Below, piece by piece: positions 17,964 through 29,274 of a DNA stretch of 30,092 nt. Position 1 is the first letter of the stretch. Each line of letters begins with the position of its first letter. The stretch lies in the IMG/VR virus record IMGVR_UViG_3300036819_000070; one strand, written 5' to 3'. The position numbers and the translations under genes were made by a program. A model generated the notes under the pieces. That model worked only from the letters and a program-made list of their open reading frames with translations, had not been told where the DNA came from and ran no database searches. The stretch comes from a virus. Taxonomy: Duplodnaviria; Heunggongvirae; Uroviricota; Caudoviricetes.

Positions 17964-18818
17964 TTATTCGTCGTCGGCGAGGACGATCGTCCGCACCAAA
18001 TTGATAGAGCGGCCCATGGGAACTTCGACGGGGGGCGCTTCGTCGGCAACGGACCGCTGAGGTGCCCGCTGTTGGTTCCCACCGTTGCCACCGCTGGTGG
18101 AATCGAGCCGATCCTGCAAATGACGCATCGCGGCACGGGCCGCACCGATCGGCAACCGGTCTACTTCGTCCATGACCCGACGGGCTCTGGCCGCAATGCT
18201 GGTAGTCGGGTTCGCGCCATAGTTCACGGCCGACACATCACCGCACTGCAAGTCCAACTGGAGCATGGTGAACTGGGTGAAGTCCTCGTTCCATTCGCCC
18301 TCTTCCAACATCGCAGCGAAGCTCATTTGGTCGACGCTGCGGTCGTTGATGGCGATGGCGAGGTCGCTGACGTCGGTGCGCGCCGGATTGAGCCACGCGT
18401 CAGTGATAAGCCCTTCCGGGCCCGCCGATAGGGTCAGCGTCCCGTTCGTTGTCCGGGCCATTGTCAGGCCCGTGTGATTGACCAGGAATGCGACGTCGGG
18501 CTTCCGCGCCAGCGAGTTATTGAACGCCGTCGAGGACACCTTTTCCGTGTATGGGCCAAACATATCCCACATTTCATAAGGTGTTTCCGTAGTTGATGCG
18601 ACGCCCGAAAGGTGATGCCATTCCTTGGAGTCATCGGGGCTACCTGCACGCTTTTCCATGGTGGCGCGGAGCACCGCCGGAAACGTCATACGGCGGACCG
18701 GCCCAACGTCTAAGGGCGGTGCGCAGCGTGACCGGCGAATGCCCTCGGGACTGGTGTCCTCGACCGCTTCGCGGCGCGCCCGCGACGCCTGTTCCCGAGC
18801 CACTTCGATGTCGATCAT
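17964..18818 (-). CDS. HK97-family prohead (capsid maturation) protease
   Basis: 284 aa; LSGVAST..PYEM, VAFLVNH (catalytic His), GTLTL...GL, DQMSF (catalytic Ser), DVSAVNYGANPTT. Confidence 0.9.
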   Translation of the reverse strand: MIDIEVAREQASRARREAVEDTSPEGIRRSRCAPPLDVGPVRRMTFPAVLRATMEKRAGSPDDSKEWHHLSGVASTTETPYEMWDMFGPYTEKVSSTAFNNSLARKPDVAFLVNHTGLTMARTTNGTLTLSAGPEGLITDAWLNPARTDVSDLAIAINDRSVDQMSFAAMLEEGEWNEDFTQFTMLQLDLQCGDVSAVNYGANPTTSIAARARRVMDEVDRLPIGAARAAMRHLQDRLDSTSGGNGGNQQRAPQRSVADEAPPVEVPMGRSINLVRTIVLADDE

Positions 18819-18847
18819 TCATACGCTCCTAAAGCGGTTATCGGGAT

Positions 18848-19246
18848 TCAGAACCCACTCGGGGTCTTCGGCGCACCGGTGCTGTTATTGGCCGGGGTGG
18901 TTGCGTCGGCGTTGGCGTCCCAACCGTTTTCGTTGCCGCCCATGGGCTCGAAGTCGCCACCATCACCAGCGGCTTTCTCGACCTCAATCTCGTTCTTGGC
19001 CTTTTCTTCCTTTTCGAAGAAAGACTCGGTGTCTTTGGCCTTTTCGGTGACGTCCTTGGGGTCTTTGTCTTCCGGGTTCTTGGACTTACTAGGGGCGTCC
19101 GGCACGTTGTCGGCGCGCGTGAGCGGCCGGAAGGCCCCAGAAAGGGCTTGTGCCCGAGTGGTGGTCACCGGGATAGCAGCTGCACCACGCGCCTCGCCGC
19201 CTTGCACAGCCGTACGGAACGCGGACCGTCGAGCGTTGTCACTCAT
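18848..19246 (-). CDS. hypothetical protein with basic N-terminus and acidic disordered tail
   Basis: RBS AAGGAG 8 nt before ATG 19246 (MSDNARR...); K/E/D-rich low-complexity C-terminal half. Confidence 0.65.
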   Translation of the reverse strand: MSDNARRSAFRTAVQGGEARGAAAIPVTTTRAQALSGAFRPLTRADNVPDAPSKSKNPEDKDPKDVTEKAKDTESFFEKEEKAKNEIEVEKAAGDGGDFEPMGGNENGWDANADATTPANNSTGAPKTPSGF

Positions 19247-19306
19247 ATTCATTGCTCCTTATTTGGGCATAGGTCGCCCCAGGAAGGGACTACCTGATTG
19301 AGGTGC

Positions 19307-19315
19307 TGCTAAGCT
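19307..19315 (+). promoter_or_regulatory. putative extended -10 promoter for the tRNA-Gln pair
   Basis: TGC-TAAGCT (TGn + TAnnnT) about 40 nt upstream of tRNA-Gln(CTG); no clear -35. Confidence 0.4.
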
Positions 19316-19354
19316 GCCCAGCGTGTGCTTCCGACAGCAATCCCGGTGACTAAT

Positions 19355-19425
19355 TCCACCGTGGGGTAATGGCAGCCCACCGGCCTCTGGTGCCGGTTAT
19401 CCAAGTTCGAATCTTGGCGGTGGAG
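19355..19425 (+). tRNA. tRNA-Gln(CTG)
   Basis: Cloverleaf: acceptor TCCACCG/CGGTGGA, D-arm GGGT-AATGGCA-GCCC, anticodon arm CCGGC-CTCTGGT-GCCGG, T-arm CCAAG-TTCGAAT-CTTGG, discriminator G; no encoded CCA. Confidence 0.95.
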
Positions 19426-19429
19426 CTAA

Positions 19430-19500
19430 TCCCCCGTGGTGCAATGGCAGCACAACGGATTTTGGTTCCGTGGATTCAGGTTCGAGTCCTGGCGGGGGAG
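19430..19500 (+). tRNA. tRNA-Gln(TTG)
   Basis: Cloverleaf: acceptor TCCCCCG/CGGGGGA, D-arm GTGC-AATGGCA-GCAC, anticodon arm ACGGA-TTTTGGT-TCCGT, T-arm TCAGG-TTCGAGT-CCTGG, discriminator G; no encoded CCA. Confidence 0.95.
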
Positions 19501-20715
19501 CTACACACCGGGGGTGAGGGGTTGCGCCGTCGGTGATCGCGACGGCGGCTTCGGTGGCCAGAACCGGTCGAACTCGTCCTTTTGCGAGTCGGTCAGCGGC
19601 GGCAAGTCATCGATCAACCGGGCTTCGGACAGTGCGAGTACCCGGCCAGCTACGCGAAGGTTGATTGCTTCGGCGCGGGTCATTGGGTCCATTCGCAGCA
19701 ACGCGTCAGGGTTGAGTTTCACGAATTGTTGCGCGGGCAGTAGTTTGTTTAGCGCGTTCTCGCGCCGGATCATCGCCGGCCCGAGCGACATGGTCAAAAA
19801 TTGGAGGTTTCTTTGCGTGACGTTCGCGTAGGTCACGGCGCTACCGGATATCGCTGAGTCGATTAAGTCGGCGGGGCAGTCGAGGAATCGGGAGATGTCC
19901 GTCGGCCCGAGCTTGCGGGCCTCGATCCATTCCATTCCGGTTTGCTCGGCCTGGATCATCTGGTAGTTCCAGTCCTTACCGGTGACTAATGCGTCACCGC
20001 TATGGACGGATTCTTTCAGGCGGGATTTGATCGCCTGCGCTTGCGTGTCGGAGATCGTGGCTTGCATGTTGTTCTGGAGGTGACTGCGCGGGATGCCGCC
20101 GCTGGTAAACCAGCTGATCGCAAAGTCCTGAATGCTCAAATGCTCACTGATGCACCAGGCCGCATACATAATCGGTGACAGCCCTAAGTGGAAGCCAGAG
20201 ACTGTGTATTGTTTTTCGTGCCAGATCTTCGACGGCGCGTACGGCTTACCTCGGATGAAGTATTCGATCAGTTTGTTGTCGATGACGTTGACGCTGACCC
20301 ATGCCAGAGGCACCAGTTCGATACACGCCGGCAATCCCCAGCCGTTGATCGCGGTGATAATCCCAATAGAGTTACCAGCACGATCTAGGTCAAATTGCGT
20401 GCTGAACATCCACTCCATGTAATCGCATTCGACACCGCCTGGCGACACAATAATCGGTGGCTTCGCGATCTCAATATGAGGCATGCCGTACTGAGGTTTG
20501 CGGAATACGTCGATAGGAAACGTGGAGATCAGATTGGCACGTAACCGTAAACACGCCCACACCGCCGAATGCCGCAGAGCCGACTCATTGTTAATCATGT
20601 GGCCGGGCTGCAATTGCATATTCATGCGGTGCGGAATCACATCGGCCGCGAGCCCACCGGGGAACTCGCCCCAGTACGGTCCCATAATGTTAGCTGTACG
20701 GAATAGGAGGCTCAC
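19501..20715 (-). CDS. portal protein (HK97 family)
   Basis: 404 aa; SAVWACLRLRANLISTFPIDVF, GLSPI, ISRFLDCPADLI, YANVTQRNLQF, EARLIDDLPP. Confidence 0.93.
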   Translation of the reverse strand: MSLLFRTANIMGPYWGEFPGGLAADVIPHRMNMQLQPGHMINNESALRHSAVWACLRLRANLISTFPIDVFRKPQYGMPHIEIAKPPIIVSPGGVECDYMEWMFSTQFDLDRAGNSIGIITAINGWGLPACIELVPLAWVSVNVIDNKLIEYFIRGKPYAPSKIWHEKQYTVSGFHLGLSPIMYAAWCISEHLSIQDFAISWFTSGGIPRSHLQNNMQATISDTQAQAIKSRLKESVHSGDALVTGKDWNYQMIQAEQTGMEWIEARKLGPTDISRFLDCPADLIDSAISGSAVTYANVTQRNLQFLTMSLGPAMIRRENALNKLLPAQQFVKLNPDALLRMDPMTRAEAINLRVAGRVLALSEARLIDDLPPLTDSQKDEFDRFWPPKPPSRSPTAQPLTPGV

Positions 20716-20734
20716 TGCTATTTACCTCCCCGTC

Positions 20735-20962
20735 CTATTGTTGTTTAGGTGGTGCGTGCATAGCTCGCTGCCGAGTCGCAGCCAGGGTCGCGAAACCCAA
20801 CAGGCACACACCCGAAATGGTCAGCAGCCCGGCTAAACCGAACCAGCACGCCGCGACGACCCCAAGACCTAACGACACGAGCAACATTCCCAGGGTTTCC
20901 AGTGCCACGATGAGAAGCTCCTGCACGAACCTCAACGGATTGATTCCAACACGTCGTAACAC
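20735..20962 (-). CDS. small membrane protein between terL and portal
   Basis: Two hydrophobic segments; position common in actinophages; start uncertain (GTG 20926 possible). Confidence 0.65.
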   Translation of the reverse strand: MLRRVGINPLRFVQELLIVALETLGMLLVSLGLGVVAACWFGLAGLLTISGVCLLGFATLAATRQRAMHAPPKQQ

Positions 20963-22398
20963 TCCGCTCCGTAAACCGCGAGGCCGTGTATCGCGAGCGC
21001 GGCGACCATCAGCGGTGAAATGTCCTGCTCAGATCGGCGCCGGCCGAAAGCCCAGCCACCGTCACCGATATCCCTCTTTTTCGCGGCCCTAATCGCTTCG
21101 TCTAAAGACAACTGCCCGATGTGCCGTAACTTGTCACGATCCGATGTGGTCGCAGCGGCGAGCATCCCCCCGCACGCCTGCGACAGTTCCCGACCGTTGA
21201 CCAGCTTCGGTTCGATACCCGCTTCGGCCAGGTCGGTGACTAGAGCTCCAGCTGGCCCGGCCGCGTCGAGGATCCACGCGATCGGACCCCACTCGGCTTC
21301 CAGCTCGACAACGCGGGGCACCATCCAGTCGACGCCGGCACGGTGGTCAAGCTGCCCGTCGCGGCCGGTGATCTCGAAGTGGGGAATCCCGTCGTCGCGG
21401 TACCCGGCGACACCGATACAACCACTGAGCAGGTCCGGTGACGCGTCGAGGGCGAACACCATCGGGGCGCCACGGATTCGGGAATCCGGATCGAGTAGCC
21501 GCGTCCACAACACCGGGTCGATCAGGGGTGCGCCACGCGGGTCATCCCAAATGCCCAGGACTTCTCTCGCATATTCGATTTCGTCCATGGAGCGTTGCGC
21601 GAGTACCAGCGTTTCTCGAGAGATTCGGATACCGAGCGCCGGGTTAGCTTGCGCCAGCACCATAGGGTCGGTGGCCGCCGCTTCCGGGTTCGCCCGGTAA
21701 TGCTCCTCGTCGGCGCTCCACTCGTAATACGCTAAACCGGGATCGCGATCCATTCCACGTTGCCGGATCCGGCGCAACGCGTGCGACGCGGGCTTGCCGG
21801 CAGAACTGAGATACCACAATTGCCAGTTGGGCCTAGCGAAAAGAATCGGCATCAGCGCGCCCACGTGATCCGTGGCGAGCGCGAACGCTTCATCGAAAAA
21901 CACCATATCGCCCGACCAGCCACGGGCCGACGAACCGGACCTGGCCACGAAGTCAATACGGGCCCGCGATTTCAGTTCGATGGACTGTTCTTCGTTGCTG
22001 ATCCGGATCTGTTTGACTTCCCGATCCAAATCAGGTTTCGACTCGATGAGCTGCTGGATCCGTTCCCGCATTTTCCGGGACGTCGCCATAAGGTGCGCCG
22101 TGTAAACGATCTTGAGGTGACTGAGGTAAATCGCGGCGAGCGAAGCGACCTCGACGATAACGGTCTTACCGTTCTGGCGCGGTACCACAAGGCCCACTTC
22201 GGGGGCGCTGAATCGTCCGCTCACGGTTTGACCGAGTGCACCCCGCAGAACACGACGCTGCCACGGATCAAGGGGCATCCCCACCATTTCGGCGAGGTCG
22301 ATCGCTTCGTCACCGGCGCTAATCTCCCACGGCGGGACTGACTCGATCCGAGGTATCTGGGACCCGACTGGTTTCGATCCGGCGAGCCCTGAGTTCAT
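20932..22398 (-). CDS. terL: terminase large subunit
   Basis: Start reassigned to ATG 22398 (RBS GGAG). GSQIPR and LDPWQ N-terminus, Walker A VPRQNGKT, Walker B VFFDEA, coupling motif YLSSAG, nuclease FALDASP and DISPL. Confidence 0.93.
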   Translation of the reverse strand: MNSGLAGSKPVGSQIPRIESVPPWEISAGDEAIDLAEMVGMPLDPWQRRVLRGALGQTVSGRFSAPEVGLVVPRQNGKTVIVEVASLAAIYLSHLKIVYTAHLMATSRKMRERIQQLIESKPDLDREVKQIRISNEEQSIELKSRARIDFVARSGSSARGWSGDMVFFDEAFALATDHVGALMPILFARPNWQLWYLSSAGKPASHALRRIRQRGMDRDPGLAYYEWSADEEHYRANPEAAATDPMVLAQANPALGIRISRETLVLAQRSMDEIEYAREVLGIWDDPRGAPLIDPVLWTRLLDPDSRIRGAPMVFALDASPDLLSGCIGVAGYRDDGIPHFEITGRDGQLDHRAGVDWMVPRVVELEAEWGPIAWILDAAGPAGALVTDLAEAGIEPKLVNGRELSQACGGMLAAATTSDRDKLRHIGQLSLDEAIRAAKKRDIGDGGWAFGRRRSEQDISPLMVAALAIHGLAVYGAECYDVLESIR

Positions 22399-22639
22399 CC
22401 AGCTCGCTCCTGACCGGCTCGACGGGTGTAGGCGGTGCGGCCTTGTCTTCGCGGTAGGCGAGGCGGCGTAGCTCAGCGAGGACTCGTTGGACACCACCGC
22501 CGCTGGCTGAGTGGCCGGCGTCGAAGTTCCGGGCGTGTAGTCGACCGATCTCGATCAGCCCACATTCCCGGGCTTGGAGATCTTCCGACAATTGCCGGAC
22601 TTGCTTATTAAAAGCGAGTAGCGTGGTGCGACTACTCAT
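22319..22639 (-). CDS. terS: terminase small subunit
   Basis: ATG 22639 with RBS GGGGGT; helical protein with C-terminal LDELRARR motif typical of actinophage TerS; overlaps the terL start. Confidence 0.7.
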   Translation of the reverse strand: MSSRTTLLAFNKQVRQLSEDLQARECGLIEIGRLHARNFDAGHSASGGGVQRVLAELRRLAYREDKAAPPTPVEPVRSELDELRARRIETSRVPDTSDRVSPAVGD

Positions 22640-23190: not shown

Positions 23191-23490
23191 GTGCTGCTGC
23201 TGCTCGAACTGATGCCCGCCGCGAGCGCCCTAACCGGCCTCGCGCTCGGTGCCGTGCTGGCTCGCCGGCCGCGCACACCGAAGCCCTACTGCACCTGCAC
23301 CCACGGCTACGGCACTCACGACCACGACCAGGGGGGCGCCTGTACAGCGCAGATCAAACGACCGAATCAGTGGGTCGGCACCGGCACAGTCAGCAGCTAC
23401 GAATGGGTGCCGTGCCCCTGCAAGCACTACGACGGGCCCGCGCCGCCCGCCCAAACCTTCGCCCCATACGTGCCGTGGCCACCGAAGTGA
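23191..23490 (+). CDS. membrane-anchored Cys/His (Zn-binding?) protein
   Basis: RBS AGGAGG before GTG 23191; N-terminal hydrophobic segment; CTCTH...C...CPC motif. Confidence 0.7.
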   Translation: MLLLLELMPAASALTGLALGAVLARRPRTPKPYCTCTHGYGTHDHDQGGACTAQIKRPNQWVGTGTVSSYEWVPCPCKHYDGPAPPAQTFAPYVPWPPK

Positions 23491-24987: not shown

Positions 24988-25162
24988 CCGGCTCTGCGAA
25001 GCGTTCCACGACCTACCAGCGTCAGCGTTCCCGTTCACGCTCGTGTTCGTCGCCGACCGCACCGGCCGCACCGTCCACCACATCCGCGTCAAAGGACCCG
25101 GACTGATCGAGATACCCGCACTCGCACCCAAACACGGCCCCATCACCGTGCACATCCGGTAG
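24968..25162 (+). CDS. hypothetical protein
   Basis: ATG 24968 within ORF 24776..25162; MTDPNTDRLCEAFHDLP...; 64 aa. Confidence 0.55.
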   Translation: MTDPNTDRLCEAFHDLPASAFPFTLVFVADRTGRTVHHIRVKGPGLIEIPALAPKHGPITVHIR

Positions 25163-25175
25163 GTAAGCTCACCCG

Positions 25176-25415
25176 GTGCTCACCATAAGCGGGCCCGTGG
25201 TAATCACCACCCAAGTACACACCCTCGCCGAACTACGCGCCTTCCTCGAACTGTGCGAACTCACCCAACTGGACTTCGATGCGCCCCTACGCGTACAGAC
25301 ACGCCTCGGTGTCCCCGGCTGGCTCGACAAAGTCACCGTGAAAAGCAACACCATCGCGCCGGCACACGTCTCACCACCCGAGCCCCGATACTCACCCGTC
25401 GCGAGCCGGCCATGA
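25176..25415 (+). CDS. hypothetical protein
   Basis: 79 aa; coupled to the next gene by ATGA. Confidence 0.6.
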   Translation: MLTISGPVVITTQVHTLAELRAFLELCELTQLDFDAPLRVQTRLGVPGWLDKVTVKSNTIAPAHVSPPEPRYSPVASRP

Positions 25416-25651
25416 CGCTCATCGACTGGCACAGCATCAGCCCAGCCGAAGCGGTCCAACGCGACCTTGACCTCACCGTGCGCCTCGACATCACCGCACC
25501 CCACAACGAGATGGGGGAACGCTGCCCCTGGCCCTGGGATCCCCAACAACTCGTCGGCGCCCCCATCGGCCAATACCACTGCCGGTACTGCGGCGCGATG
25601 GTCCTAGCCGGTATCCCCCACATCGACTACGGACAGGACCCCGCCGCGTGA
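25412..25651 (+). CDS. Zn-binding hypothetical protein
   Basis: ATG 25412; CPWPW...GQYHCRYCGAMVLAG..H motif. Confidence 0.65.
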   Translation: MTLIDWHSISPAEAVQRDLDLTVRLDITAPHNEMGERCPWPWDPQQLVGAPIGQYHCRYCGAMVLAGIPHIDYGQDPAA

Positions 25652-25851
25652 ACCCCGTGCACCCCGACGTCATCCGCGACGTCGACAGTGTCATCGCCTC
25701 AGCCCTACTCGACGGTCGCGTGATCAGCGAACAATGGCGCGACACCCTCATTCGGATAGCGAACGGTGACATCGAAGTCGAAGACGTCATCGCCGAGATC
25801 CACGCCGAACTAGACCGAACCCACCCAGACCGGCACTCACAAACCAGCTAA
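25648..25851 (+). CDS. small helical hypothetical protein
   Basis: GTGA overlap; 67 aa; last gene of the plus-strand operon. Confidence 0.6.
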   Translation: MNPVHPDVIRDVDSVIASALLDGRVISEQWRDTLIRIANGDIEVEDVIAEIHAELDRTHPDRHSQTS

Positions 25852-26061
25852 CGGGCCCCGTGGGTGCAACACCGTGGTCACTGCGGCGGCGACTACCACA
25901 CAAACCACGCCGGCCACAAACCACACCGCGCGCCTCGGCCGCTTCGGCTGCGACTGACCGAACCCGTCTAACAGCTGCTGCACCTCATCGCAGATGGCCT
26001 CCATACGGTCCGCTGCCCGCCCAACTGCCAGCTGCGCAGCTTCCTTCGCCTCGCCCACCAT
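25837..26061 (-). CDS. small C-terminally anchored membrane protein
   Basis: ATG 26061 with RBS GGGGAAGG; helical N-terminus plus one hydrophobic segment. Confidence 0.55.
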   Translation of the reverse strand: MVGEAKEAAQLAVGRAADRMEAICDEVQQLLDGFGQSQPKRPRRAVWFVAGVVCVVVAAAVTTVLHPRGPLAGL

Positions 26062-26089
26062 TACCTTCCCCCTCGCCGGGTGCACCGGC

Positions 26090-26152
26090 GTTTAGAGCCC
26101 GTTTAGAGCACCCTCGTTTGCGCTGGTCACCCTCACCAGCCAGGTTTAGAGC
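26090..26152. repeat. three GTTTAGAGC direct repeats flanking a 16-bp element also found at 29286
   Basis: Copies at 26090, 26101 and 26144; CGTTTGCGCTGGTCAC at 26115-26130 is identical to 29286-29301. Confidence 0.7.
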
Positions 26153-26154
26153 CG

Positions 26155-26340
26155 TCACGCAAGCTCCCCAAGATCACCGATCGCGACCCAAGCCATCCGC
26201 GCCCGAACGGTCTCGAAGTTCCCCGTGCGGGCTTGCTCGGCAAGCTCCTCAAAGCTGAGCCCCGATCGCTCCAGGGTCCGACGAACAGCCTCACGCAAGT
26301 CGTCCTCGTCGGCCACGACGACATCCGGCCGCTCAGACAA
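26155..26340 (-). CDS. small helical hypothetical protein
   Basis: TTG 26340 overlaps the upstream stop; MSERPDVVVADEDDLREAVRRTLERSGLSFEELAEQARTGNFETVRARMAWVAIG. Confidence 0.6.
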   Translation of the reverse strand: MSERPDVVVADEDDLREAVRRTLERSGLSFEELAEQARTGNFETVRARMAWVAIGDLGELA

Positions 26341-26512
26341 CGCGGCGCACGAGCACAATCGTCAGAGGCGAACCAACCGCATCCCACGTAGCACCACACC
26401 CCGGTGCGCCGGCATCCTCAGGATCCGGGGTCACACACTCCGCACCCTCCTCCGAGCACCACACCCGGCCCACACCGCAGTACGGGCACAACAACGGTCG
26501 GCCAGCACCCAT
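26333..26512 (-). CDS. 59-aa Zn-ribbon protein
   Basis: Manual translation MGAGRPLLCPYCGVGRVWCSEEGAECVTPDPEDAGAPGCGATWDAVGSPLTIVLVRRVV; TGATG overlap with the upstream gene. Confidence 0.65.
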   Translation of the reverse strand: MGAGRPLLCPYCGVGRVWCSEEGAECVTPDPEDAGAPGCGATWDAVGSPLTIVLVRRVV

Positions 26513-26901
26513 CAGCGCTGCCCCGCCACCAGCTGCCGCAACAGCGCCCCATGTTCGTCATGTAGCTGCTGGAGCAACGTCAACGCCTGGGCGTTGACCT
26601 CGTAATCATGCTCAGCGGACAACCGGTCATGCTCAGCGGTCCGATTCTGTGACAACAGGATCAACGGCGCCGCGTAAGCCGCCTGCGTCGAAAACGCCAA
26701 GTTCAAAAGGATAAACGGGTACGGATCCCACTGCCGAATGACCGCGACCACATTCAACACAATCCACAACGTGACGAAAACCGTTTGGATAATGATGAAC
26801 CGCCAACTCCCGAACCCCCCAGTAACCGAGTCCGCGGCCCGTTGACCGAAATCCCTTTTATCGCGCAGCACGACATTCGCTGGATGCCTATGCAAAGTCA
26901 C
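26512..26901 (-). CDS. DUF1003-like membrane protein
   Basis: GTG 26901 with RBS GGGGGAGG; ADSVTGGFGSWRFII...WDPYPFILLNLAFSTQAAYAAPLILLSQNR is the DUF1003 signature. Confidence 0.9.
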   Translation of the reverse strand: MTLHRHPANVVLRDKRDFGQRAADSVTGGFGSWRFIIIQTVFVTLWIVLNVVAVIRQWDPYPFILLNLAFSTQAAYAAPLILLSQNRTAEHDRLSAEHDYEVNAQALTLLQQLHDEHGALLRQLVAGQR

Positions 26902-26983
26902 GATCAACCTCCCCCAATTCGACCGCAACCCGGCCGGAAACCCGACCGAACCCCACACTAACCAACCCCGAACCCAATGAGCG

Positions 26984-27217
26984 TTAATCCGTCCGCGTCC
27001 CCAGGTAGGCATAGGCAAACGAGTTATTTGGCCGAGCCGAACGGCGCTCATACACAGCGACCAGCCCCGGCGAGACGACCTCCTCAGCGACCGGAAACAA
27101 AGACGGTGCCCCCAGCGGAACTGGGAACCGCCACAAAAAAGGTGGAGCGCCATGCCAGCGAACCGTTCTCCCGCTCTCCGGACCTCCAAAGAACACCAAC
27201 TCGCACGCCGTCGCCAT
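26984..27217 (-). CDS. small hypothetical protein
   Basis: 77 aa with LVFFGGPESG motif (GGP-x-x-G type common in phage microproteins); starts 5 nt after tRNA-Glu. Confidence 0.6.
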   Translation of the reverse strand: MATACELVFFGGPESGRTVRWHGAPPFLWRFPVPLGAPSLFPVAEEVVSPGLVAVYERRSARPNNSFAYAYLGTRTD

Positions 27218-27222
27218 TTCGG

Positions 27223-27295
27223 TACCCCCAGCGGGATTCGAACCCGCGCCACCGCTGTGAAAGAGCGGAATCCTAGGCCGCTAGACGATAGGGAT
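27223..27295 (-). tRNA. tRNA-Glu(TTC)
   Basis: Minus strand ATCCCTA-TC-GTCTAGCGGCCTAGGAT-T-CCGCT-CTTTCAC-AGCGG-TGGC-GCGGG-TTCGAAT-CCCGC-TGGGGGT-A; D-arm matches actinobacterial tRNA-Glu; acceptor stem has two G:U pairs. Confidence 0.85.
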
Positions 27296-27451
27296 CAAAG
27301 GCACCCAGTCAACTACCTGCTCATCCGAGAACACCTCCACCGTCAACCCGCTGTTAGGTGTCCAGTACGTAAGTACCCAAGGATCCTTGAAATCGCCCTC
27401 AGGAAAATGTTGAGCCACGAAACCGTCAGGACTCATCCGCGCCTGGCGCAT
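27281..27451 (-). CDS. 56-aa hypothetical protein overlapping the tRNA-Glu 5' end
   Basis: Strong RBS GAGGAGGAG; MRQARMSPDGFVAQHFPEGDFKDPWVLTYWTPNSGLTVEVFSDEQVVDWVPLIPIV; stop TAG is tRNA nt 13-15. Confidence 0.6.
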   Translation of the reverse strand: MRQARMSPDGFVAQHFPEGDFKDPWVLTYWTPNSGLTVEVFSDEQVVDWVPLIPIV

Positions 27452-27834
27452 CACTCCTCCTCCTCAGCCCAACCGACGAACCCGACTCGACGTAGCAGGA
27501 GCAGCCGGCGCCGTAGGAGGCGCATCATCAGCGTCAGGCCCAGCACTATCGTCATCATCGTTAACACTGCCCGACCCATTACACATCGGGCACGCGAACC
27601 CAAGCCCAACGTTACCCGACCCGTGACACCTCGGGCACCTCTTTTTCCGGCGCACCAATCCCCCGCTCGATTAAGATGGCGATCGGAATCCGCGTCAGCG
27701 GCATCCTCCGAAGGGAACCCCACACCCGACTCACCACACGAACACGACCACACAAAACCAGCCGGCAAAACCCGGCCCTGCGACGACCGCTCACCCTCAG
27801 CAGCCGGCCCCCACACCAACACATCGTGCGCCAT
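27451..27834 (-). CDS. hypothetical protein with H...CSC...H motif (3' part overlaps the DnaJ-finger ORF)
   Basis: MAHDVLVWGP...FVWSCSCGESG..F.SE.AA....DRHL looks like a small Zn-binding domain; the C-terminal half may be spurious read-through. Confidence 0.35.
   Translation of the reverse strand: MAHDVLVWGPAAEGERSSQGRVLPAGFVWSCSCGESGVGFPSEDAADADSDRHLNRAGDWCAGKRGARGVTGRVTLGLGSRARCVMGRAVLTMMTIVLGLTLMMRLLRRRLLLLRRVGFVGWAEEEE
27464..27658 (-). CDS. DnaJ-type CxxCxGxG zinc-finger microprotein
   Basis: CPRCHGSG...CPMCNGSG followed by an acidic/Pro-Ala tail. Confidence 0.65.
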   Translation of the reverse strand: MVRRKKRCPRCHGSGNVGLGFACPMCNGSGSVNDDDDSAGPDADDAPPTAPAAPATSSRVRRLG

Positions 27835-28007
27835 GGTCACGCACAATAGCCGCACCACTACAGGCAATCACAAACGCATCGTGACCAGGCAACATCGGCC
27901 AGTTAAACAGTCAATCCTCCACCCGAATCACCCCAAAAACGCACAGTCACCAACCAACATCGGCCAGTCAATAGCAAGATCAAACCGATTCCGCCATTTT
28001 TCATTCT

Positions 28008-28060
28008 GGAGAGAGAAAGGCGGAGATGCTACGCATGTGTGTGTTTGGATGGTCTAAAAA
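28008..28060 (-). other. candidate cos/packaging-site region
   Basis: Minus strand TTTTTAGACC...CCGCCTTTCTCTCTCC lies between HNH and terS, at the edge of a repeat array; resembles sequence context recalled near cos ends of actinophages (not verified). Confidence 0.35.
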
Positions 28061-28080
28061 TCCGGATTGTCCTTTTTGAC

Positions 28081-28620
28081 TGTGTGTTATCACCTGTTTG
28101 GCCTATTGACATGTGACCACCCCGGAATTACCACCCATTTGGCCTATTGATTGTGTGCTACAATTGGAATACATCACCTGATCGTGTGTTTGACATTACC
28201 AATCGTGTCATACGTATCACACGAATGGCCTATTGCATTGGACGTGTATGTGTGTGTGATTGCACAACGTGACTATTGCATTGTGTGTCGTGGTGTGTGT
28301 GTCCGTTGTGTGTGGATAGTGTACCCATGTGGCCTAGTGTGTGTGGCTGTGTGTGTGGTGGTGTGTGCTGTGGGTTATCACCTGTGTGGAGTATTGCATT
28401 GTGAGCACTAGGCCATGTGGTGGTAATTGTATGTGTGCATACCATTACTGTATGTGGTGTCACTGTGTGTGTACAATATCCGATACTGTGTGTGCACGTG
28501 TGTGCACCACGTGGTCACTATGTGTTGGTAATTGTATGTGTGCATACCATTACTGTATGTGGTGGTACTGTATGTAGCTATTGCCCCACATACCACCCGT
28601 ATGCACAGGTCACGGGCTCG
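28081..28620. repeat. TG-skewed, lower-GC repeat region
   Basis: TGGCCTA(T/G)TG at about 28099, 28140, 28226 and 28330, plus an inverted copy at 28406-28415; exact 39-bp duplication at 28421-28459 and 28526-28564; long (TG)n-like tracts. Confidence 0.85.
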
Positions 28621-28682: not shown

Positions 28683-28973
28683 ATGCGCGGGATCAATTGT
28701 GATCGTTGCTGTGGTCGCCTGTACAACGTTGCTGACATATGCGCGACCTGTGCAGGCGAGCTACAGCCAGCACACGCGCTAGCCGCAGCATGCGGTAGTG
28801 AGGCCGCTAGCCTGCCTGAGTGGGTCCGTATGGCGCGCGTGCACCACGCGTGTGTGAACGGGTCAGCTAACCCGGATTGCCCCACAGGGCTGCACACGCG
28901 GGTACCGCTACTGGCCATGGGTGCGATGCTGGCACGTAAGCGGCAGGCGTTGGTTACCAGCGTCGCGAGGTGA
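28683..28973 (+). CDS. Cys-rich (Zn-binding) hypothetical protein
   Basis: RBS AGGAGG; CDRC...CATC and HHAC..GSANPDCPT motifs. Confidence 0.7.
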   Translation: MRGINCDRCCGRLYNVADICATCAGELQPAHALAAACGSEAASLPEWVRMARVHHACVNGSANPDCPTGLHTRVPLLAMGAMLARKRQALVTSVAR

Positions 28974-29274
28974 CCACAACCGCGCGGAGTCGTTGCCGTT
29001 GCAGGTGGCGCACTCGGTTGCCTTCCGACGCGTTGCAACCCCTATGCGCGGGTGCGAGGTTACCGGGGTCGGTTGGGTCGCCACCTTGCTCCAGTCCGAT
29101 TATGTGGTGCGCGGTACCGGCTAGCCGGTGGAGCGGCATGACACGCGTGAACGCGTAGTTAATTGACTTTCCGCATAGGTAACACGGGGTGAGGTTGTAT
29201 TCACCGTCTGCCATGCATTGCGCCTGTATTCGGCGCCATTTGGAGCCATTGCGGCCCGGACCACTGCTGACCAT
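28954..29274 (-). CDS. HNH endonuclease (packaging-associated, HK97 gp74-like)
   Basis: KWRRI...CYLCG...TAHHII....GGDPTDPGNLAPAHRGCN..EGNR; co-oriented with and upstream of the terminase genes. Confidence 0.9.
   Translation of the reverse strand: MVSSGPGRNGSKWRRIQAQCMADGEYNLTPCYLCGKSINYAFTRVMPLHRLAGTAHHIIGLEQGGDPTDPGNLAPAHRGCNASEGNRVRHLQRQRLRAVVVTSRRW

Follow-up and report, generated by a model that had tools for sequence, protein, structure and literature searches.

In this study, we describe a tandem pair of glutamine transfer RNA (tRNA-Gln) genes that lies inside the head operon of an uncultured tailed soil phage of the Caudoviricetes, known from the IMG/VR record IMGVR_UViG_3300036819_000070; the whole stretch of 30,092 nucleotides that was analysed is referred to as the window. 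The first gene, tRNA-Gln(CUG) or tRNA1, occupies 19355-19425 of the plus strand and the second, tRNA-Gln(UUG) or tRNA2, 19430-19500 of the same strand, each 71 nt long and separated from the other by the 4-nt plus-strand spacer CTAA (19426-19429). A preliminary description of this DNA had reported two cloverleaves 4 nt apart at the junction between the portal gene and the next gene, supplying both Gln decoders, and had named ARAGORN as a check. ARAGORN called three tRNA genes in the window, Gln(ctg) and Gln(ttg) on the plus strand (about 19355-19501) and a glutamate gene, Glu(ttc), on the minus strand, and the Rfam tRNA model supported all three calls; with a gathering score of 29 bits, RF00005 gave 59.1 bits for tRNA1 and 60.5 bits for tRNA2, both aligned over their full length (1-71). 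The 7-nt anticodon loops, CUCUGGU in tRNA1 and UUUUGGU in tRNA2, yield the anticodons CUG and UUG, and by score, anticodon loop, first base pair (U1-A72) and discriminator base (G73) both are elongator tRNAs of the isotype Gln; both also carry G37. The pair is thereby confirmed as two real tRNA genes standing between the portal and head-protease genes, and both decoders are indeed present.

The flanking protein genes are all on the minus strand, and the cassette is antisense to them, as had been described. They include the large terminase gene (20932-22497), the portal gene (19501-20715; Pfam Phage_portal, 4e-35), an open reading frame (ORF) of 134 aa and unknown function at the portal-protease junction (18848-19252), which varies within the clade, the prohead serine protease gene (Peptidase_S78; 17964-18818) and the major capsid gene. 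The portal gene ends on the stop codon TAG, read as CTA on the plus strand, at 19501-19503, and the discriminator G of tRNA2 is base 19500, with 0 nt between them; the claim that tRNA2 adjoins the portal stop codon is therefore exact to the base. CTA, not CCA, stands directly 3' of both tRNA genes. Third-party gene calls on an independent assembly agree with this arrangement and place about 254 nt between the portal gene and the next gene.

The cassette recurs in soil. In a different soil study a 27-kb contig includes both tRNAs and matches 18800-20800 throughout at about 96% identity; the cassette and its flanks are also covered by shorter contigs from three further runs. Since the junction was assembled independently in several soil studies, an assembly chimera is excluded. 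Yet another soil contig carries a tandem pair about 87% identical to that of the window, in which the likeness begins and ends exactly at the tRNA ends and the flanks are unrelated. Between the window and a related 79-kb, 93%-complete genome (G001), tRNA1 is 98.6% identical, differing at 1 of 71 positions (position 37), and the flanking genes are 88-89% identical, that is, 11-12% of their positions differ; by our own arithmetic the conservation of tRNA1 above its flanks has a binomial P of about 0.002, which points to purifying selection on the gene. A variant of the CUG tRNA with a 2-nt CG insertion at window position 19407, giving a 9-nt T-loop, was found in the relative L001 (3162-3235) and in one soil run; its flanks are near-identical to the window, and it stands in two independent assemblies. 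The exact 44-nt junction pattern found no match in viral contigs because L001 has this insertion. Among cultured phages, megablast of the region gave no match, and tblastn with the portal gave only relatives at ≤28% identity. It could be argued from the T-loop variant, and from G001 lacking tRNA2, that the pair consists of non-functional remnants in decay or is an artefact of assembly, but the high covariance scores, the conservation above the flanking genes and the independently assembled junction make this explanation very improbable.

Some 100 distinct related loci were gathered by portal-based searches of viral contigs, metagenomes and genomes, and within the flanks retrieved tRNAs lie near the portal gene in three relatives only (L001, L002/G001 and L004/G002). 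At the portal junction itself a tRNA is found only in the window, L001 and L002/G001 among these loci. L001, with a portal 100% identical to that of the window, has both tRNAs in the same place; L002, which is part of G001 (portal 97%), has only the CUG gene at the junction; and in L004/G002 (portal 77%) a homologous CTG+TTG pair stands elsewhere, some 2.3 kb upstream of the gene for terminase. A degenerate pattern for the tandem pair matched G002 only among viral contigs and had no match in genome contigs or metagenome contigs. Three complete clade genomes with terminal repeats (71-88 kb) have no tRNA at all. The same antisense placement, which the preliminary description had proposed to look for in related phages, was thus found in the nearest kin only, about 95 relatives and the three complete genomes being without it.

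The junction itself is highly variable. Across the wider family (portal identity 36-58%, including prophages of Streptomyces, Micromonospora, Amycolatopsis and others) the protease gene overlaps the end of the portal gene by about 28 nt. Within the 66-100% clade the portal-protease gap measures 350-1480 nt and differs in content between phages, with 41-64 nt from the portal gene to the next gene in tRNA-free members. An 80% relative (L003) has a 57-aa hydrophobic, membrane-like ORF on the plus strand (1380-1553) at the spot that the tRNAs occupy in the window, and the junction therefore appears to be a general insertion site. On the minus strand, the 134-aa gene is preceded at 19253-19291 by a small hairpin and a ribosome-binding site (at 19262-19291, GTCCC, a 5-nt loop and GGGGC, then GAC-C-ATG with the ribosome-binding site). 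In the alignment, which includes L003, L004 and L005, these elements are present in all clade members with or without tRNAs and are therefore part of the operon and not of the insert. The lineage-specific insert is, by alignment, 19292-19354 (63 nt) together with the tRNAs. At one junction, with the flanking genes intact, some close relatives have the cassette and others do not, as is typical of a moron, and by this comparison the cassette appears to be a recent, dispensable and lineage-specific addition.

These relatives also bear on tRNA-dependent lysogeny, in which a phage tRNA replaces a host tRNA gene destroyed by prophage integration and which is established in actinobacteriophages with one or few tRNAs (PMC10865867). 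Neither a Phage_integrase nor a Resolvase domain, the marks of tyrosine and serine recombinases, was found in the 93%-complete G001, the closest relatives are free viral contigs with terminal repeats, and the cassette carries two isoacceptors. We consider this the least probable of the explanations weighed here.

The closest portal relatives in genomes are contigs of Pseudonocardiaceae metagenome-assembled genomes (MAGs; 78-79%), followed by actinomycete prophages, and the host is likely to be a Pseudonocardiaceae-like actinobacterium. To compare the phage tRNAs with those of candidate hosts, tRNA-Gln genes were extracted from five actinomycetes with related prophages or phage contigs, namely two Pseudonocardiaceae MAGs, Amycolatopsis, Streptomyces and Micromonospora. 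U1-A72, the determinant read by bacterial GatCAB on tRNA-Gln and tRNA-Asn (PMC2811023), was found together with G73 and G37 in 10 of 10 host genes, and CCA was not encoded in any of the six with downstream bases read (the two MAGs and Amycolatopsis). The preliminary description had singled out U1-A72 and the missing CCA; both features are there in both phage genes, but as the host genes share them neither sets the phage genes apart. The phage UUG tRNA is 85% identical to a Pseudonocardiaceae MAG tRNA-Gln(UUG), and in the phage database tRNA2 finds its best DNA matches in annotated tRNA-Gln genes of Streptomyces phages. The identity of the phage CUG tRNA is 77% with the host UUG type versus 58% with the host CUG type, and its acceptor stem reads TCCACCG versus TGGGGTA in host CUG genes. 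Since the CUG gene has a backbone of the host UUG type, its most plausible origin is a duplication of a UUG-type gene with a change of anticodon. Candidate hosts have Gln(CTG) in a cluster with Glu(CTC) and Gln(TTG) by itself, and a search for host genomes with a CTG-TTG tandem gave none; given this difference in arrangement, the phage tandem is not a copied host operon.

There is no plus-strand gene for 19 kb upstream, and the cassette would therefore need a promoter of its own. The candidate site is the 63-nt plus-strand leader at 19292-19354, which alignments limit to cassette-carrying relatives; the candidate leader length is 63-102 nt. Within it, at 19307-19315, stands TGCTAAGCT, an extended -10 form that occurs twice in the window, both times upstream of plus-strand units, the second being the plus-strand operon at 23191. 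The extended -10 element noted earlier is thus present on the plus strand at that place, but a two-hexamer promoter scan found no plus-strand match near the cassette. The leader has no significant fold (z-score 0.13) and no match to an Rfam family. No motif was convincingly common to the leaders of all tRNA loci, and TANNNT hexamers were near chance; a likeness between the leaders of the window and G002 (GGGACTAC/GCTGCTA) was unconvincing as a shared promoter as the spacing differs.

Codon usage bears on what the cassette might be for. In the late genes (604-22398, minus strand) A-ending codons make up 38-56% of the Gln, Glu and lysine (Lys) boxes despite a third-position GC of about 0.72. CAA accounts for 38% of Gln codons in late genes and 48% in the other genes of the window, and GAA for 56% and 44% of Glu codons, respectively, compared with about 10% CAA and 18% GAA in 48 kb of Pseudonocardiaceae MAGs (66-70% GC); both codons are three to four times as frequent in the phage as in its likely host. 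Among head genes of the clade, the GAA share is 0.48-0.62 in tRNA carriers versus 0.28-0.30 in the tRNA-free complete genomes. It was also observed that the A-ending bias is strongest in tRNA-bearing members of the clade. This codon bias fits decoding support by the cassette, and we give a probability of about 0.62 to the reading that the pair is an accessory, self-transcribed tRNA cassette for decoding support whose orientation is incidental.

Several points weigh against this reading. The CAA share overlaps between tRNA-free relatives (0.14-0.40) and carriers (0.38-0.56). CAG is not rare in the host, which leaves the CUG tRNA unexplained by rarity. AAA, which makes up about 20% of Lys codons in the sampled candidate-host DNA, is equally over-used by the phage, yet tRNA-Lys is absent from the window. 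As promoter signal there is only a -10-type motif, of which chance alone would give about one per window, and its two matches are close to the chance number. The 2-nt T-loop insertion suggests that the CUG copy is not strictly constrained everywhere, and the host was assigned from MAG binning and the likeness of the tRNAs.

If decoding support is nevertheless the function, the following course of events may be proposed. A tRNA pair would have entered the hypervariable junction between the portal gene and the next gene in one sub-lineage of soil actinobacterial phages with genomes of about 80 kb, the CUG gene having arisen from a UUG-type gene by duplication and anticodon change. The cassette would be transcribed alone, on the plus strand, from a leader of 63-100 nt; the precursors would be trimmed by host RNase P and 3' trimming enzymes, CCA would be added by the host, and charging would follow the host route in which glutamate is attached and then amidated. 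The product would be more Gln decoders, chiefly for CAA, a codon far commoner in the phage than in its high-GC host. The antisense orientation would be incidental, or at most tolerated, as it would keep tRNA processing sites out of the late mRNA.

A different role was suggested by the preliminary description, namely that the cassette could tune portal versus protease and capsid production through antisense pairing of the precursor with late mRNA, RNase III-type cleavage or transcriptional collision; in this view mirror-tRNA structures in the late mRNA might also act as a site of processing or attenuation. Folding of the complement of the tRNA pair gave two stable cloverleaves in mirror image (-55.7 kcal/mol, z-score -2.8), and a late mRNA reading through it is predicted to hold a strong structure just 3' of the portal stop codon, with 0 nt between that codon and tRNA2. 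This mirror structure is a consequence of the geometry and not evidence for regulation. The terminator scan found none for the cassette and no terminator-like T-run on either strand. About 95 relatives with the same portal-protease-capsid order do without the cassette, as do complete genomes without any tRNA, and it is not conserved with the operon, and tRNA2 was lost from G001 or was never there. As a built-in regulator of head protein ratios the cassette has no comparative support.

The other tRNA loci of the lineage bear on the same question. Of seven independent tRNA loci, five run antisense to the genes on both sides, as judged by independent gene calls where present and otherwise by our own choice of ORFs, a proportion that is no different from random orientation, though the arrays of cultured actinophages are co-oriented instead. 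In five of six antisense loci, in three genomes, the tRNA 3' end lies ≤5 nt from, or overlaps, a convergent stop codon (19500/19501 in the window, 8784/8790 in L014, 18029/18031 in L012 and 11345-11347 in L010), and on the 5' side of antisense loci 30-170 nt of non-coding DNA are retained. One could imagine from this that tRNA genes hop as single-gene cassettes, settling preferentially antisense and flush to a convergent stop, and that the mirror structure also serves the upstream cistron, here the portal gene, as its 3' end, as an attenuator or as a processing element; if true, decoding and operon punctuation would be combined in one element. We regard this hopping model as improbable. The tuning of head proteins is to be doubted to the same degree, and the antisense tRNAs elsewhere adjoin unrelated genes (an HNH gene and small ORFs) with no apparent link to head stoichiometry.

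The loci in question are as follows. The third accessory tRNA of the window, tRNA-Glu(UUC), lies at 27223-27295 on the minus strand, is called by both ARAGORN (27221-27295) and Rfam, and is co-oriented with its neighbours. It is homologous in the window, G001 and G002 with differing neighbours; in G001 it is on the plus strand and antisense (L012:4763-4835, equal to G001 44763-44835). G001 has tRNAs for methionine (Met), Gln(CUG) and Glu(UUC) and an odd tRNA-like gene. G002 has Gln(CUG), Gln(UUG), Glu(CUC) and Glu(UUC), with the Gln pair at L014 8636-8784 and the two Glu genes, 240 nt apart, at L014:12139-12450 on the plus strand. In the window, G001 and G002 alike, tRNA-Glu(UUC) has an unusual first pair, A1-U72. 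The tRNA-like gene of G001 (L012:17957-18029, plus strand, equal to G001 57957-58029) encodes CCA and has a non-standard anticodon loop; ARAGORN reports it as 'tRNA-???' and Rfam gives it 55.9 bits. Only 1 nt separates its end from the stop codon of an HNH endonuclease gene, whose homologue in the window (28954-29274, minus strand) has no such tRNA-like neighbour. In this part of the window, the roughly 600 nt at 28000-28600 are non-coding and rich in T+G, with numerous TGTGTG runs and repeats of the motif TGGCCTATTG, and GC skew is strongly negative (to -0.26) over 25000-28000; these regions may be an origin or packaging region.

The make-up of these tRNA sets raises the possibility of counter-defence, that is, phage Gln and Glu tRNAs replacing host tRNAs that a defence or toxin directed at tRNAs has cleaved or depleted, a role compatible with codon support. 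The sets consist almost only of Gln and Glu decoders (Gln-CUG, Gln-UUG, Glu-CUC and Glu-UUC in G002; Gln-CUG, Gln-UUG and Glu-UUC in the window) and include decoders of codons common in the host. Position 37 of tRNA-Gln(CUG) is G in the window versus A in G001 and G002, and all host genes examined have G37. In G002, two genes from the Gln pair, a 172-aa product (L014 7738-8256, minus strand) has a weak likeness to HAD/polynucleotide-kinase-3'-phosphatase proteins (E 1e-4 to 4e-3) and may be linked to RNA repair, but the match is below Pfam cut-offs. Moreover, the window tRNAs keep the host-like G37 loop, the three complete clade genomes manage without any tRNA, and we know of no Gln- or Glu-specific nuclease in the host. 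The G/A difference at position 37 does resemble the anticodon-loop changes of mycobacteriophage tRNAs described in PMC10264068. Taken together, counter-defence is a possibility but an unlikely one, about one chance in several.

Phage tRNA genes are common, and their purpose is debated between codon support, defence evasion and lysogeny. The lineage described here offers a compact natural comparison, with close relatives that carry two, one or no tRNAs at one junction, and to this are added the same tRNAs at other sites and in other orientations and a clear gap in codon usage to the likely host. A CUG decoder that appears to have been made from a UUG-type gene inside a phage is of interest in itself. 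On present evidence no new mode of head-assembly control is revealed.

The cassette belongs to a known kind, phage-encoded tRNAs, and it is its position in the head operon that is unusual; our searches of the literature gave no report of antisense tRNAs within head operons of actinophages. Like the window, Streptomyces phage GiJojo (PP725410), with its tRNA array, and Mycobacterium phage Fowlmouth (MH834613), with a single tRNA-Gln, are examples of host-like tRNAs in high-GC actinomycete phages. Within its large array, GiJojo (L128) has Gln(ctg) then Gln(ttg) and Glu(ctc) then Glu(ttc), the same order as in the lineage of the window. The tRNAs of GiJojo and Fowlmouth are clustered or single, co-oriented with their neighbours and outside the head operon, whereas the window has a two-gene unit placed antisense between portal and protease genes and flush with a stop codon, and the other tRNAs of its lineage are scattered singly. 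The defence-evading tRNAs of PMC10264068 likewise come from actinobacteriophages, and position 37 likewise varies between near-identical copies in the lineage of the window; unlike those tRNAs, the copies in the window keep a host-type anticodon loop. A further parallel is given by morons and other accessory insertions in phage late operons, which, like the cassette, are present or absent at a fixed junction with a leader of their own and leave the operon unchanged. In contrast to morons, the cargo in the window consists of RNA genes in the opposite orientation, with a promoter that is a candidate at best and no terminator found by the scan.

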